Origin: Nitrososphaerales archaeon
GTDB lineage: Archaea > Thermoproteota > Nitrososphaeria > Nitrososphaerales > UBA213
NCBI GenBank assembly: GCA_965197925.1
Contig: CBDAOC010000001.1
Location: 24,724 to 88,723, forward strand
DNA: 64,000 bases
Direction: 5' to 3'
Positions 48,001 to 54,000 of the stretch are shown one piece after another. The first letter of the stretch is position 1. The number at the start of each line of letters is the position of its first letter. A program made the position numbers.

Positions 48001-51000
48001 TGTAACTGGATATAATGGATTCAAGAGAATAACAGGTACAAAAATACATGCCACAGTAGAGAGTAACGGATTTCCAATATCCATACTGTTGAGTCCAGCA
48101 AATGAACATGACAGTACAAAATGCATGGATGTTACAGGATCAATTTCAGACTATCTTGATGATGATTCAATACAACAGATAGAACCAGTTTATGCAGACA
48201 AAGGGCATGATGCAAAATACATCAGAATGTATTTGTGGGATAGAAATATTGCATGTTGCATCCCATACAAAATAAATTCCAAGTTCATCTTGCAAAATAA
48301 TGATTGCAAACATTACAACAAGACAAGATTTGTAGTTGAGAGATTCCTTGCATGGCTCAAGAATGGATTTCACAGAACAAGAACCAGGTATGAAAGAACG
48401 GCAGAAAACTATCTGGCATTTGTTAATCCTGCATCATTTTTGATGTATTGTAGGGTTTTGAGATGAGTTGGTTATGCTTTCATACATCTTGTTATCAGTA
48501 ATGTTAGCTGTTGTGAAATCAGCTGATAATGGAACTATCAACGAACCTGTGCTACATGCTAGATGCATCTTGTATCCGAATATCCATCCCTTGGTTCTGC
48601 TGAATCCCCATCGAGCATCTGTATCTATACCGGAGCGTGGCACTTCGTTCTTCTTCATGCTAGATTTGTGCCATACATGTCCCTTTGCTTTCAACAATGA
48701 ACTGTCAACGGATACTATGGCTGGGTCTACCAACCCATCTTTTATGAAGAGCACACCCATAGCACCTATCCTTGATCTTATGTCAATTGATACGGCCTTG
48801 ACCTTCTGTCGAATGTTCTTTTATCTGGCAACCTATCAAGACCACATGCCTTCATTACCTTCCTGTTGTATGGCATGTCTATCGAATAGTATTCATGCAA
48901 AGCATTGTTGCTTGGTATTCTTATCCATACTCTAACGATGAAGCATCTCACCATAACTGTAGGAGAATAGTAGAATGGTCTACCTCTTTTCCTATTAGGT
49001 TTTGACCAAGGAATCACGTCAATCAAAAATAATATACGAAGAAGTATGGAGTCTGAGCTAAACATATCAACAATAAAAACTAGAACCTGATCTTATCGTT
49101 TCGAACTAAATTACGCCCAAGCCTCAGATATCTATCAGACAACAGCTTCGATTGGAAAGACAATACTTCTAATTTCTTGACTGTTGATATTGTGGTCCAC
49201 TCTTTTTCAAACAGATGTTGACGGAAGTATGTAATATATTTACATCAAATCTGCTGGCTTCCAATTAAGCAGATATTAAAAGGTAGTACTGTTTACCAGA
49301 GATGTGGATACTGTAGAGGCATTTGAGAGGGATATAATGTATCAGGTTACCGATCTTAAGAAATTTTCACAGTCATTAAATGTTAAGAAAATAAATGTTG
49401 AGCAGCAACAGAGATGTATATTCACCGGTGCTGGAGATTCATTTGTTGCAGCATTGATAGCAGAACTGGCTTCTGATCACAGGATCCAATGCGTTGATCC
49501 TATGGATATATGCATAAATCCAACAATTGTTAAAGAAAGGTTTCTTTATACAGTATCGGTATCGGGAAATACAAGGGCAAACATAGATGCTACAACGATA
49601 GCTAATAAGGTTGCTGAGAAGACAATTGCTATTACTGCGGATGCTAATAGTAGGCTTGCCAAAATCTGTGATGAGGTTATAGAATTGAATTTTAGAAGTT
49701 CTAACATCTTAACATCAGGAAGTATAGGTTTCGCTGCGTCTATGTTTGCATGCCTCTCACTCGTGAAGGATTTGCGTCTTGGTGATATTAAACGACTTTT
49801 TGTTCAAGCAAAGAAAGATGCGGAGAGAATAGAAGTAAGTGGACATATGTACATAGTCGGTAGCTGGATCACTTTCCCATTAGCCATTTATGGTTCGGCT
49901 AAATTGTATGAAGTACTTGGAATAAAGGCTCAATATGCAATGCTGGAACAGTTTTGTCATATGGAACTCTTTTCTATGCGAAGAGGTGATACTGTTCTTG
50001 TACTAACCTCAAACGATGATAATATAAGCAAATTAATGGAAAAACTTCTGGATAAAGATTATAATGTTTTTATTTGCAAACCTAAAGGTAACAACTTGGA
50101 AGAAAAACTGTTATATCATACAATGGTACTGCAGCAATTGGCGCTTCAGAATGTAAAGAGACAAAAATTTAACGAATGCTATTTCATGAGGAATAAAAAG
50201 TTAAAATCAATAAGCAGTAAACTAATTTACTGAACGAACTTCCTTGCTTTTCACCATTCATTCTATTTCATCAATGATTAAACCAAGTTTATTTATAACT
50301 ATAGTAGGGTGATTTGAATAATTCTGAATGGTTAGATTCAATGAAGCATCACAATTATACCTGTTGATATTATCCTTGCGGCAAGATTGGAAACTATAAC
50401 AATTTCATTTTCTATGTATCTTATCAATTGTATACGGCAGCTTTCAATTCATTTTATCTTCACTATCTAAAACTGGCTTATAACAAGGAATCATCAGCCT
50501 TCGAGCTTATCAAACGGGCGGTTATTTTCTCTACTTATAAATCCATTCTCACTTCTGTTCTTTTGCCCTGTATGGATAAGCATTGTGGAAATTTTATCTT
50601 AACTCAGATCATCTCTAATACTATTCTCGTTCTGTATTATTGATCATAATTCATTTTTCAACTTTGTTGAGTATCCAAGGATTCTCCAGTTTATTGATTG
50701 TGTATCCAAATTGATACCCATTTATTCACTGAGGCTCTTAATGATTAACAATTTGACACAGCTAGCAGGTGGAGTTGTAAAAAGGTGTTCCATTTGCCAA
50801 TTTGCAAGTAGAGTCCTAAATTTTGTATCCTTATTGAGCTAACAATGATTAATGATTTAATGATTTCTAGCAGAAGGATTAAATAAAGATACTCGACAGA
50901 GTTGTGCCAGATAGGATGCCGCGTTACAAGTCAACTCAAGAAGCATTAAAGGTCATAGGCAATAAAGACCAAATTCGAATGGAGTGGGGTTGACTCCTTA

Positions 51001-54000
51001 CACCCGAATAATATTGGTACTATAGCCCATGTAGATCACGGAAAAACTACCATGAGCGATAGCTTATTGGCTGCCACTGGCATGATAAGTCCCTCCGTGG
51101 CTGGGCAGGCATTGGCATTAGATTTCATGGAATTAGAACAAACAAGACAGATGACTATCAATGCAGCTAACGTTACTTTGTATTACGAGGAGGATGGTAA
51201 GGCCTATGTTATGAATATGATCGATACACCAGGGCATATTGACTTTACCGGAAGGGTAACCAGAAGTTTAAGGGCCATCGATGGTGCCATAGTTGTCTGT
51301 GACTCTGTGGAAGGAGTTATGACCCAGACAGAAACCGTTACCAGACAGGCGCTTGAAGAGAGAGTAAAACCCGTTCTGTACATCAACAAGATAGATCGGT
51401 TGGTCAAGGAATTGAGGTTAACGCCTCCTAAGATGCAGGAATGGTTGGCGGGAATAATTGGTGATTTTAACAGACTGATCGACATTTATGCCGAACCTGA
51501 GCTGAAGGAGAAATGGAAGGTTAGTATACAGAATGATAGTGTAGCATTTGGTTCCGCTAAAGATAGGTGGGGTTTCAATGCTGGTATGGCAGCAAAAAGA
51601 GGAATTAACTTTAACACTATTTTTGACGCTTATACCTCGGGAGAACCCAAAGAATTAGGCAAAAAGGCTCCCTTACATGAAGCAGTGTTGAGTATGGTTG
51701 TTAAACATCTCCCCCCTCCACACGTTGCTCAGAAATACAGAATACCCAAAATATGGAAAGGTGATCTTACCTCTGATATTGGCAAGGCTCTTCTAGAGTG
51801 TGATGATAATGGTCCCGCTATAATGATGATCACTACCATGGTGGTTGATCCTCAGGCAGGGCCGGTAGCAGTGGGTAGATTGTTTTCAGGTACATTAAAG
51901 GATGGTAATGAAATTCATCTCATAGATTCAAAGAGAAAGGAAAGAATTCAATCCGTTAACTTGTTTATGGGTGCTACCAGAGAGATTGTTGGTTCACTTG
52001 GTGCTGGTAACATACCTGCATTGCTTGGATTAGAACATGCGAGAGCTGGAGAAACCATAGGTTCTACACAAAACATTTATCCATTTGAATCGATCAAGTA
52101 CGTTTCTGAAGCTGTCATCACAGTTGCTGTGGAACCAAAACATCCAAAGGATTTACCCAAACTAGTTGAAACATTGAGAAAGATGAGTATAGAGGATCCC
52201 AACTTAGTGGTGAAGATCAATGAAGAAACTGGCGAGACTCTAATGGCTGGTATGGGAGTATTACACTTGGAAATAGCTACCTCGTTACTAGAGCAAGCTG
52301 GCCTGGAGATTACTACTTCCCCACCGTTGATCAATTATAGAGAAACAGTAAGAGCAGCTGCAGGGCCAATAATGTCAAAGTCACCGAACAGGCATAACAA
52401 GTTGTTTGTTAAAGTGGAACCCTTGAGTGAAGACGTGATAGAGTTGATAAGAACTGGAAAGATAAACGAAAACATGGACAAGAAAGATATAGGCGCGGTT
52501 TTGCGGGAGAAGGGCTGGGAAACAGACGAAGCCAGAAGGGTAGTAGCTATAGAGAGCGGGAGTCTACTCGTTGATGCAACCAAGGGTGTTCAATACTTGC
52601 AGGAATCTATGGACTCGATAAAATCCGGTTTCACCGACATCATGCTCACTGGTCCGATGGCCCAAGAACATTGTAGAGGAATAAAGATTATTTTACATCA
52701 CTTCGTCCCACATGAAGATCCGGCGCATAGAACTCTTGCACAGCTTATGCCCGCAAGTAGAAGGGCTGTCATGGGCTCGATACTTGTAGCAGATCCGGTT
52801 TTGCTGGAGCCAGTACTTGGTATTGAAATAAAATGTCCTGCGGATATGATTGGAACAGTTGCTGGTATATTATCCGGGAAGCGTGGTAAGTTGATTAACG
52901 TTGATCAGAGAGGTATAATAGCAATTGTAACGGGTGAAGTACCAGCATCCGAAACTTTTGATTTGTCAGAGACTATGCGAGGAGGTACTGCTGGCAAAGC
53001 GATTTGGAATACTCACTTTAAGCTATGGCAAGCTGTGCCATCCTCGCTTCTTAAATCAATAATAACAGACATTAGGAAGAGGAAGGGTTTGAGCCCAGAG
53101 CCTCCAAGCCCTGATGAATTTATTGATAAAGAATAAAAAGTGATTCCCCCCCTCCTAGGCACGGATTTGTGTCGCTGACTAGGTAATTGAGACTTGGGCA
53201 TAATTCAATTATAATATTATTTTGAAATTATTACTATTAGCTTCCCAACATATACTTCAATGCCCTAAGAGGCCTTCCTGTCAAGTAGTTGTAGTACACC
53301 ATTACCTGATACAACAATACTGATAACAACACTATACTCCTTACCTTATCAAATCCTCTAACTGGCAATGGATCTATGGTAAATACATCCTTCATATGCT
53401 CTACCAATGGCTCAACGCTTATGCTCCTCCGAGAATATACATGCTGTCCAAATTCAGATTGATAGAACTGCAGCAATGCCAGTCTATTATTATCTGTAGT
53501 ATGCTTGTACCTTTCCAATGGGAATACTGGATGCCCTCTATACCTGCTGAAATCACATAACTTGTGATCATCATATCCTTCATCTCCTACAACATACTTT
53601 ACCATTCCTGTAGGCAATGAAGATGTTATGCTTTCATACATCTTGTTATCAGTAATGTTAGCTGTTGTGAAATCAGCTGATAATGGAACTATCAACGAAC
53701 TTGTGCTACATGCTAGATGTAGTTTGTATCCGAATATCCATCCCTTGGTTCTGCTGAATCCCCATCGAGCATCTGTATCTATACCGGAGCGTGGCACTTC
53801 GTTCTTCTTCATGCTAGATTTGTGCCATACATGTCCCTTTGCTTTCAACAATGAACTGTCAACGGATACTATGGCTGGGTCTACCAACCCATCTTTTATG
53901 AAGAGCATACCCATAACATCTATCCTTGATCTTATGTCAATTGATACGGCCTTGACCTTCTGTCGAATGTTCTTCTGTCTGGCAACCTATTAAGACCACA

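Follow-up and report, generated by a model that had tools for sequence, protein, structure and literature searches.

Splicing of mRNA has been regarded as rare in archaea. In eukaryotes, XBP1/HAC1 mRNA loses a short, frame-shifting intron by protein-only, RtcB-type joining, and regulation has been shown there. An intron in archaeal cbf5 pre-mRNA was reportedly described by Watanabe in 2002 and Yoshinari in 2006. In the accessible parts of two papers (PMC7714728, PMC2738675), cbf5 is the only archaeal coding sequence named with a confirmed intron, next to one case in a 5' UTR. The cbf5 introns of Sulfolobales and Desulfurococcales are 16-44 nt long and are cut between bulge bases 2 and 3, according to the available text of Yokobori 2009 (PMC2738675), which also cites predicted introns in other genes (its refs 39 and 50) that may bear on novelty. 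Bulge-helix-bulge (BHB) introns are also found in archaeal tRNA and rRNA (excerpts of PMC6379350 and PMC8598171), and those in tRNAs of Asgard archaea were gained repeatedly (excerpt of bioRxiv 10.64898/2026.10.13.758758). The IRE1/RtcB splicing of XBP1/HAC1 mRNA is named in an excerpt of PMC13149111.

Here we analyse a window of 64,000 nt, the whole stretch of DNA under study, from contig CBDAOC010000001.1 of a Nitrososphaerales archaeon (GCA_965197925.1). Its gene for elongation factor 2 (aEF-2) is interrupted by a 31-nt BHB intron, which makes this essential translation factor of ammonia oxidisers and Bathyarchaeia a second archaeal coding gene with an RNA-supported intron. Reports of an aEF-2 intron were not found in the open-access literature (subscription papers and supplements lie outside this scope), and the intron has quite probably not been described before.

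The aEF-2 introns resemble those of cbf5, as far as the accessible text of PMC2738675 describes them: they are short, have BHB or relaxed BHB borders, interrupt a conserved codon after its first base, vary in their interior, are present in a lineage-specific manner and occur in a host with a hetero-oligomeric EndA. They differ in gene and lineages, aEF-2 being an essential single-copy translation factor, in occupying seven sites instead of one, and in having an internal stop codon in 117/117 introns at sites 64-98, as opposed to 10/17 in cbf5. The intron studied here lies in aEF-2 and is not the orthologous cbf5 intron, which sits in the catalytic Asp codon; the cbf5 gene of the window's genome is continuous. 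The 5' UTR intron of HVO_1309 in Haloferax volcanii (excerpt of PMC7714728) is likewise a BHB intron in an mRNA and is processed by EndA, as that of aEF-2 presumably is. However, the former lies in an untranslated leader and mends no frame, whereas removal of the latter mends the reading frame. Archaeal tRNA and rRNA introns have the same motif and presumably use the same enzymes (excerpts of PMC6379350 and PMC8598171); intron-bearing tRNA calls are also present in the window's genome. Since the aEF-2 host RNA is translated, its helix is bound by codons and its intron by the reading frame, unlike in tRNA and rRNA, and aEF-2 introns carry no homing endonuclease. Finally, the aEF-2 intron resembles that of XBP1/HAC1 in being a short, frame-shifting mRNA intron with protein-only and presumably RtcB-type joining, but nuclease and signal differ and regulation is a hypothesis for aEF-2.

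A BHB intron splits the aEF-2 gene ahead of the P-loop

With the intron removed, aEF-2 is a single frame of 729 aa that opens with the ATG at 50916 and closes with the stop at 53136. Its N-terminus is then continuous, as in intron-less relatives, and the conserved reading frame is restored. Without removal, the longest ORF begins at Met36, TIGR00490 is matched only from model position 35, and the exon-1 frame closes at a stop within the intron (Table 1). The exon-2 frame has no ATG, GTG or TTG upstream of the P-loop that could serve as a rescue start codon. TIGR00490 is matched above its curated cut-off of 738.45 bits, with scores of 826.8 bits and, for exon 2, 859 bits, and this is the sole full match in the genome; aEF-2 is single-copy, and the remainder of the gene, including the diphthamide His motif, is intact. 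A preliminary description of the locus had called the gene N-terminally short and had proposed that a 31-nt BHB intron in an Asn codon separates the true N-terminus from the P-loop. Both points hold, the latter now with a predicted BHB, the same site in relatives and, as had been missing, RNA in which the intron is skipped; the gene start, given as 50917, was one base off.

The gene is sited among IS copies, between inverted duplicates. Upstream of the start codon lies a purine-rich and TATA-like stretch, which is probably a BRE/TATA promoter and which also occurs upstream in three loci of the family. Its distance from the ATG would imply a very short leader. A scan for bacterial-type promoters and terminators, which is unsuited to an archaeon, gave chance-level results.

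Table 1. Positions of the aEF-2 gene, its intron and the BHB elements in the window.
Feature	Position	Strand	Basis
Likely archaeal promoter (purine-rich box, then TATA-like box)	50871..50885	+	Sequence reading; ~30 nt 5' of start codon
aEF-2 exon 1 (codons 1-21 plus base 1 of Asn22)	50916..50979	+	RNA contigs cover from 50930/50937 onward
Outer stem, 5' strand	50968..50973	+	Pairs with 51012/51014-51018; five pairs at probability 0.96-1.0, strict innermost 0.017
BHB central helix, 5' strand UUCG	50974..50977	+	Exon-coded: Ile20 wobble base and Arg21
5' bulge, cut 50979/50980 after its second base	50978..50980	+	Fold, RNA joint, cleavage rule (PMC2738675, excerpt)
31-nt BHB intron	50980..51010 (contig C1:75703-75733)	+	Absent from X1 and X2 RNA contigs; present in run X8
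Inner stem-loop of intron (2 bp, mismatch, 6 bp, 6-nt loop)	50981..51004	+	Fold; first pairs covary in relatives
TGA stop in exon-1 frame, within intron	50991..50993	+	Unspliced product of 25 residues
BHB central helix, 3' strand CGAA	51005..51008	+	Intron-coded
3' bulge, cut 51010/51011 after its second base	51009..51011	+	Fold, RNA joint
aEF-2 exon 2 (from base 2 of Asn22 through the P-loop and all remaining domains, with the diphthamide His motif, to the stop)	51011..53136	+	TIGR00490 match

The intron splits codon 22 (Asn) between its first and second bases. In the predicted fold, a 4-bp central helix lies between two bulges, with pair probabilities of 0.96-0.98 for UUCG/CGAA and 0.92-0.96 for the inner stem. 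On its outer side the motif is relaxed, the ground-state prediction showing a helix of 5 bp with a 3' bulge of 4 nt. The pair 50973-51012, needed for a strict 3-nt bulge, has a probability of 0.017, although an outer stem of 5 bp lies beyond it. In most order-level relatives the outer stem measures 3-5 bp. The local fold by itself is only modestly better than chance, 14/300 intron shuffles being equally stable; the weight of the case rests on RNA and relatives. At 31 nt, the intron is far too short for the ribozyme core (hundreds of bases) or the endonuclease ORF of a group I or group II self-splicing intron or a homing-endonuclease intron. An Rfam search over 50700-51200 returned nothing on the intron and only a chance-level snoRNA match upstream of it (E 0.69).

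The intron is removed from RNA and splicing enzymes are encoded

Four of ten listed runs were compared with the window, namely three sponge metatranscriptomes from one study (X1-X3) and run X8. X1 and X2 each provide one contig across the site, and both lack exactly 31 nt; none of the contigs of X3 spans the joint, and this run is uninformative. On the shorter side of the joint the two contigs extend over 42 and 49 letters, and apart from the skip they match the window without any difference along 226 and 201 nt. One ambiguous base allows two equivalent placements of the joint, of which only 50980-51010 gives a 4/4 helix; it puts the borders after the second bulge base, in line with the BHB rule. 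No intron-bearing contig is listed for X1 or X2. The spliced joint is present in 2/2 RNA runs covering the site, on two assembled contigs with depths of 8.5 and 6.2; rare forms tend to be lost in such contigs. Run X8 retains the 31 nt; its kind is not on record, but it is probably DNA and possibly near the assembly's source. The intron is absent in RNA and present in DNA, the DNA being that of the assembly and probably of X8, and not of the X1 and X2 samples.

The genome encodes two PF01974 (splicing endonuclease) proteins, with open frames of 189 and 194 aa, and one PF01139 (RtcB) protein. The former, near C19:216010 and C19:402879, correspond to a catalytic-type and a structural-type EndA subunit; a two-subunit EndA is the type that goes with relaxed motifs. 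One of them has, as read by eye, what we take to be the catalytic Tyr/His/Lys and a Lys-bearing extra loop.

Introns at the same site occur in many relatives

Introns at this site (site 64) are present in 9/9 genomes of the window's family, in 11/11 of the Nitrosocaldus-type sister family, in five more families of the order, in one family of the class outside the order (f24) and in many Bathyarchaeia. In the two large families that we take to be the main ammonia oxidisers, 85/85 and 110/110 genes are unbroken, counting genes with a matched N-terminus and excluding unpublished genomes. The preliminary description is thereby borne out for the window's family and for the absence from the two main families, and its sister-family count is extended. 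A profile search recovered the same site in 45 genomes and a GTDB pattern search gave 93 matches, 90 of which were placed by script (the others are L181, L194, where an intein adjoins the intron, and L215). One first-pass candidate (L029) has Lys in place of Arg and a continuous gene; one f15 gene (G593) has a stop inside its match.

A 4/4 helix is formed in 90/93 matches, 51 as UCCG/CGGA and 39 as UUCG/CGAA and never mixed, which amounts to a compensatory switch; the search pattern did not contain the 5' helix strand. On the tree, the helix type switched independently three times. At the true offset, 91/91 introns have the 4/4 helix, whereas none of 12 slid offsets gives it in more than 16, and the paired cells of 14 hand-picked loci fall from 94% to 25-46% when slid. 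Selection acts on the BHB helix. The introns are 16-63 nt long, with 37, 21 and 20 in the three modulo-3 classes. Position 2 is G in 91/91 and position 6 is T in 89/91, a conservation of intron ends that is partly imposed by the search pattern and the fixed exon sequence.

Other intron sites and the history of site 64

BHB introns with differing helices were found at seven sites of aEF-2 (64, 65, 84, 88, 97, 98 and 195). The six beyond site 64 belong to other lineages, and five of them surround the P-loop. All seven fall within the first 65 codons, which may partly reflect the search, as breaks near the model start were examined first. In family f9, 12/68 full-length genes are broken, all by BHB introns and at three sites; they are scattered among intron-less close kin, and both presence and site vary between near relatives. 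Introns at sites 97 and 98 turn up again in distant lineages, with 7 and 4 changes on the tree, and at site 97 in f14 three helices reach only 2/4 or 3/4. Site-65 and some site-97 introns have their first and last bases in common. Inteins hit the same P-loop. Loci noted earlier as truncated at model position 31-32 carry, in those sampled, either introns at sites 97/98, in the Lys codon of the P-loop, or inteins at GK/T. In G119, a deletion comes after the 5' part of a site-97 intron, G061 matches a divergent, continuous EF-2 of doubtful origin, and G594 is without an N-terminus.

That the intron is ancestral in the order, as had been suggested, is not shown and is not the only option, since the use of site 64 in f24 and Bathyarchaeia means that it either predates the order or goes back to at least two gains. 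On a single-gene FastTree tree (161 rows, residues before 70 excluded, 43/158 forks under 80; partial genes, those frameshifted further on and identical proteins omitted), its presence requires at least nine changes; with one gain only, 13 losses are needed. We lean slightly towards one gain before the split of Nitrososphaeria and Bathyarchaeia, followed by many exact losses, including those in the two main ammonia-oxidiser families, and sometimes by replacement with introns at nearby sites. Phase and site are the same in both classes, whole families are uniform, the two intron bases and, in 80/91, the stop codon position are shared, and lineage-specific loss is documented for cbf5 (PMC2738675, accessible text). 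However, 13 losses exceed the minimum of nine changes on a tree of one gene with many weak forks, the conserved ends are partly accounted for as described above, and the codons around the site vary freely in intron-less genes, with no footprint of a former intron evident.

The other history, which we consider nearly as probable, is that BHB introns repeatedly enter the conserved N-terminal part of aEF-2, a hot spot in this view, and that site 64 was hit independently several times. The seven sites with their different helices, the scatter in f9, the recurrence of sites 97 and 98, the inteins in the same P-loop and the shared end bases of site-65 and some site-97 introns all point in this direction. 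Against it, no donor was found: the best match of the window's intron elsewhere in the genome is 18/31 letters, and none of these introns (16-63 nt) contains an endonuclease gene.

Introns at sites 64-98 carry stop codons in the exon-1 frame

At the six sites 64-98, an exon-1-frame stop lies inside 117/117 distinct introns, which are related sequences and not independent events. The rule is not universal, since 0/2 introns at site 195 have one. At site 64, the exon-1 frame has a stop in 91/91 introns, including 25/25 of in-frame length; the two remaining frames have one in 19 and 33, and shuffled introns in 31%. It sits at the same codon in 80/91, as TAG (57), TAA (13) or TGA (10), and 11/11 introns without it carry another one 1-4 codons on, in about four separate lineages. 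In the window, the TGA stands in for the usual stop two codons earlier, which is lost in this genome. Frame-shifting cbf5 introns, in contrast, contain a stop in only 5/12. Applied to cbf5, the detector used for aEF-2 found the known intron in 17/21 loci, with the placement in L264 uncertain. A candidate aIF5A intron in G012 was rejected, having a 2/4 helix and an unbroken profile match.

Proposed splicing mechanism and alternative explanations

In all probability, the best explanation is tRNA-type splicing of an essential mRNA by EndA and RtcB, with a passenger intron whose stop limits translation of unspliced RNA. We infer that these two enzymes are the agents and that splicing is mostly constitutive. 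The aEF-2 pre-mRNA would fold into a BHB spanning both exon/intron borders, two-subunit EndA would cut each bulge after its second base and RtcB would ligate the exons, so that the Asn22 codon is rebuilt and the start codon comes into frame with the GTPase P-loop. We propose that the short passenger persists because, at an invariant position in a gene that is both essential and single-copy, only exact loss is tolerated. The stop would be kept by selection: ribosomes reaching an uncut intron would halt after ~25 codons, making no P-loop-damaged factor and freeing the RNA for refolding and splicing.

The same enzymatic steps could serve a different purpose, with translation rate competing with splicing in a feedback on aEF-2, which appears unlikely to us. 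Slow elongation, when aEF-2 is scarce, would favour folding and splicing, and fast loading would hinder them; as the intron lies 64 nt after the start codon, ribosomes on exon 1 would open the 5' strand of the helix and stall at the stop. The stop does lie close to the 5' splice site and arises anew where it has been lost, aIF5A, a second translation factor, is built alike in 3/3 intron-bearing loci read, all aEF-2 sites are close to the start, and a negative-regulator role has been suggested for the cbf5 intron (PMC2738675, accessible text). However, no unspliced contig was seen in X1 and X2, large families do without the intron, the variation within f9 fits a turnover of passengers, and the 5' bias may partly stem from the search order. 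A broader idea is that mRNA splicing is common in Nitrososphaeria and Bathyarchaeia and has been overlooked: short BHB introns would repeatedly enter invariant translation-factor codons (at seven sites in aEF-2, at the modified Lys in aIF5A), their selected stops would couple ribosomes to splicing, and feedback between ribosomes and the tRNA splicing endonuclease would set factor levels. This is a speculation that we consider rather improbable.

That the RNA joint reflects no splicing but a hairpin jump of reverse transcriptase, or an intron-less allele of a co-occurring strain, is very hard to sustain. The libraries are cDNA, a stable stem spans the skipped part and the DNA compared comes from other samples. 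Yet the joint lies inside both bulges, as BHB cleavage predicts, with the 5' helix strand kept and a single ambiguous base, and is identical in two samples whose contigs otherwise match the window; moreover, the intron is present throughout the family, and the sole aEF-2 would be without a P-loop if unspliced. Bridging in translation (programmed frameshift or read-through), an assembly error or a pseudogene is in effect refuted by the absence of the insert from RNA. The cbf5 break was initially mistaken for frameshifting (PMC2738675, accessible text), and the gene has IS copies and inverted duplicates around it; yet inserts occur in all three length classes, all in-frame ones at site 64 contain stops, the same site recurs in 45 genomes and the gene is otherwise intact.

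Splicing of the aEF-2 mRNA, with similar introns in many relatives, makes it testable how BHB introns arise and move, as one family's close relatives differ in site. Premature stops in retained introns are selected in eukaryotes; whether archaea do likewise, and how splicing proceeds under coupled translation, are further questions of this kind. Nitrosocaldus is available as laboratory cultures, and since its family has the intron in all genomes, a bench test is within reach. In these genomes, gene callers can strip the P-loop from a standard phylogenetic marker, as happened in this window.

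A BHB intron interrupts the aEF-2 gene

The gene for elongation factor 2 (aEF-2) is broken close to its start. Read from the ATG at window position 50916, one base before the start at 50917 in the preliminary description, the frame reaches a stop after 25 residues. The long frame bearing the P-loop has its first start codon at Met36, and TIGR00490 aligns to the called protein no earlier than model position 35. No other full aEF-2 match is found genome-wide in the window's genome (G000). At the protein level any of three 31-nt deletions regains the conserved N-terminus. Among these candidates, deletion of 50980-51010 gives a motif of the bulge-helix-bulge (BHB) kind with a 4/4 central helix (UUCG/CGAA) and each of the two cuts following the second base of a 3-nt bulge.

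Ten sequencing runs contain the intron stretch, of which four (X1, X2, X3, X8) were compared. X1 and X2 are sponge metatranscriptomes from two samples of one study, available as assembled contigs, not reads. Each has one contig with exactly 31 nt missing at the intron (short side 42 and 49 letters, depth 8.5 and 6.2), otherwise identical to the window across 226 and 201 nt, and no intron-retaining contig is listed among the assembled contigs of either run. The site is not covered in X3, and X8, from another study and of a kind not on record, runs unbroken through the whole stretch, without a joint. Thirty-one nucleotides are removed from aEF-2 RNA. The joint is compatible with 50979-51009 or 50980-51010, and only the latter placement agrees with the BHB rule.

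In the predicted fold, probabilities exceed 0.9 for the central helix, for the 5' bulge and for the inner stem of 8 bp. The outer side is relaxed in the predicted ground state (5-bp helix, 4-nt bulge, then 5-bp stem), the strict outer pair having a probability of 0.017. Energy of folding alone is weak evidence, as 14 of 300 intron shuffles are equally stable. By every feature testable from sequence and RNA contigs, this is an archaeal BHB pre-mRNA intron: the preliminary description was right that it is real, and it is RNA-supported and more widespread than stated there.

In anatomy it is like the cbf5 intron (PMC2738675); our detector recovers the known cbf5 intron in 17/21 loci. The two are nevertheless not the same element, since they differ in host gene, breadth, site number and selected stop. 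According to PMC7714728, cbf5 is the only earlier case of an mRNA intron, to which a 5' UTR intron is added. No report of the aEF-2 intron was found in the open-access literature, and it is apparently unreported before.

Distribution and history of the site-64 intron

Profile searches gave 121 loci, 117 of them anchored. Seventy carry an intron within their first 40 codons (67 with a 4/4 helix), 40 are continuous there and seven are neither (six inteins, one divergent gene); 70/117 is not usable as a frequency, because loci were chosen partly for a late-starting match. Site 64, named like all sites by the number of preceding coding bases, is used in 44 of the 70, as in the window, plus one gene with both intron and intein. 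Within the order it occurs in the window's family (f1, 9/9; f-codes are our labels), the Nitrosocaldus-type sister family (f8, 11/11), f13 (4/4), f18 (2/2), f2, f7 and f10 (1/1 each), beyond the order in f24, and in another class in f36, f42, f47 and f51.

The GTDB collection was searched with a pattern covering just the 3' border, which leaves out the varying base of the 5' helix strand. It returned 93 stretches: 53 titled Bathyarchaeia, 32 Nitrososphaeria/Thaumarchaeota (among them Ca. Nitrosocaldus schleperae, N. tengchongensis, Nitrosothermus koennekii and one Nitrosomirales record), five unnamed archaea and three with bacterial titles. Protein restoration placed the intron in 90 of the 93, and the helix is 4/4 in 90/90, as UCCG/CGGA (51) or UUCG/CGAA (39), with no mixed form. 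The variation sits at the third, silent codon position of Ile20, and the intron base changes along with it; the switch occurs three times on the aEF-2 tree. Pairing fails in slid-offset controls for this helix. Lengths range from 16 to 63 nt and fall into all classes modulo 3, and the shortest intron (L004 / L159) equals the minimum listed for cbf5 introns. Contigs L131, L143 and L218, in bacteria-titled genomes, carry an archaeal, intron-bearing aEF-2; they are probably misbinned, because the two placed in the tree fall inside Bathyarchaeia.

The two largest families, whose size and place in the tree suggest Nitrosopumilaceae and Nitrososphaeraceae, show no break: matches run from model position 4-9 in 85/85 and 110/110 genes with a matched start (unpublished genomes excluded; of the 119 genomes behind the second count, 6 gave either no match at all or one that misses the start).

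In a FastTree phylogeny built from 161 aEF-2 proteins (from residue 70 on), site 64 takes a minimum of 9 changes, and a single gain before the Nitrososphaeria-Bathyarchaeia split needs 13 losses. We lean slightly towards one old gain, which is favoured by the end bases and stop position shared among site-64 introns. Repeated gains are an almost equally likely alternative, suggested by turnover in f9, which shows gains to be frequent: 12/68 full-length genes are broken there, 12/12 by BHB introns, at three sites and among intron-less close kin. That the intron is ancestral in the order, as proposed earlier, is possible; this is too narrow under one old gain and wrong under repeated gains, and site 64 is also used outside the order.

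Further sites and inteins

Late-starting matches resolve into additional BHB introns, each site with its own helix.

Positions of the introns and neighbouring features
Feature	Position	Families	Loci	Remark
Window's aEF-2 intron	50980-51010 (site 64)	f1		31 nt, in Asn22 codon
aEF-2 intron	site 65	f19, f3	5	
aEF-2 intron	site 84	f43, f58	5	
aEF-2 intron	site 88		1	
aEF-2 intron	site 97	f5, f14, f9	11	splits P-loop Lys codon
aEF-2 intron	site 98	f9, f48	6	splits P-loop Lys codon
aEF-2 intron	site 195	f54	2	
Inverted duplicate	42103-49126; 56953-64000			7.0 kb, 99.6% alike
aIF5A with intron	G000:C18:283239-283647		L288	22 nt
tRNA array	G000:C16:24379-97254			28 genes, all without introns

Introns at site 65 (f19: L012, L013, L038, L041) and site 97 (f5, f14: L035, L039, L059, L067) agree in the first four positions and just before the 3' helix strand, a likeness that may reflect one intron moved between sites. 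L294 (genome G119) carries the 5' part of a site-97 intron, after which ~35 codons are missing, and is either a misassembly or a damaged copy. Six genes (L044, L086, L089, L090, L092, L093) have an intein of 526-613 residues directly after the P-loop Lys, instead of or besides an intron; that of L044 is Pfam-confirmed, with a LAGLIDADG domain. Since L090 carries both the site-64 intron and an intein, it needs RNA and protein splicing.

A stop codon inside the introns and the proposed mechanism

An exon-1-frame stop is present in 117/117 distinct introns of sites 64-98, which are not independent trials because the sequences are kin; what counts as independent is the use of six sites and of three stop triplets, together with the replacements. 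At site 64 this stop is found in 91/91 introns, whereas the two remaining frames have one in 19 and 33, and shuffled introns in 31%. It lies at one shared codon in 80 (TAG 57, TAA 13, TGA 10), and the other 11, the window's included, have a replacement 1-4 codons downstream, in ~4 lineages. Site-195 introns have no internal stop (0/2), one having a stop four codons beyond. Among cbf5 introns an internal stop is present in 5/5 in-frame and 5/12 frame-shifting ones.

G000 encodes two proteins of the EndA family (tRNA splicing endonuclease) and one RtcB ligase. By what we take to be the diagnostic motifs, one EndA subunit carries the catalytic residues (Tyr, His, Lys) plus an extra Lys-bearing loop, and the other is without the His. 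Such a pair is of the two-subunit type, which is linked to relaxed motifs (PMC6379350). The same pair is present in 5/5 genomes of intron-less relatives, so enzyme type does not account for the intron's distribution. Most likely the tRNA splicing pathway would act on aEF-2 mRNA, EndA cutting both bulges and RtcB joining the exons. As the intron begins 64 nt past the start codon and the leader is probably very short, ribosomes could arrive before cutting, and the in-intron stop would end such translation rounds early. We favour the stop as a safeguard only; that it provides feedback on the supply of this translation factor seems unlikely.

Other observations

BHB introns with a 4/4 helix also occur in aIF5A of G000 (L288), G003 (L287) and G008 (L286), the latter two of 22 and 32 nt. 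They split the Lys codon of the GKHG motif, that of the modified Lys, behind its first base and contain an in-frame stop (3/3); in G015 and G012 the aIF5A profile match is unbroken. The inverted duplicate flanks a 7.8-kb stretch with aEF-2, near which are several IS-like copies, and is either a real duplication or an assembly effect. The tRNA array lies on a single 150-kb contig and so differs from the other tRNA calls of G000, which are scattered and often bear introns; it may be a mobile element or belong to a foreign contig.
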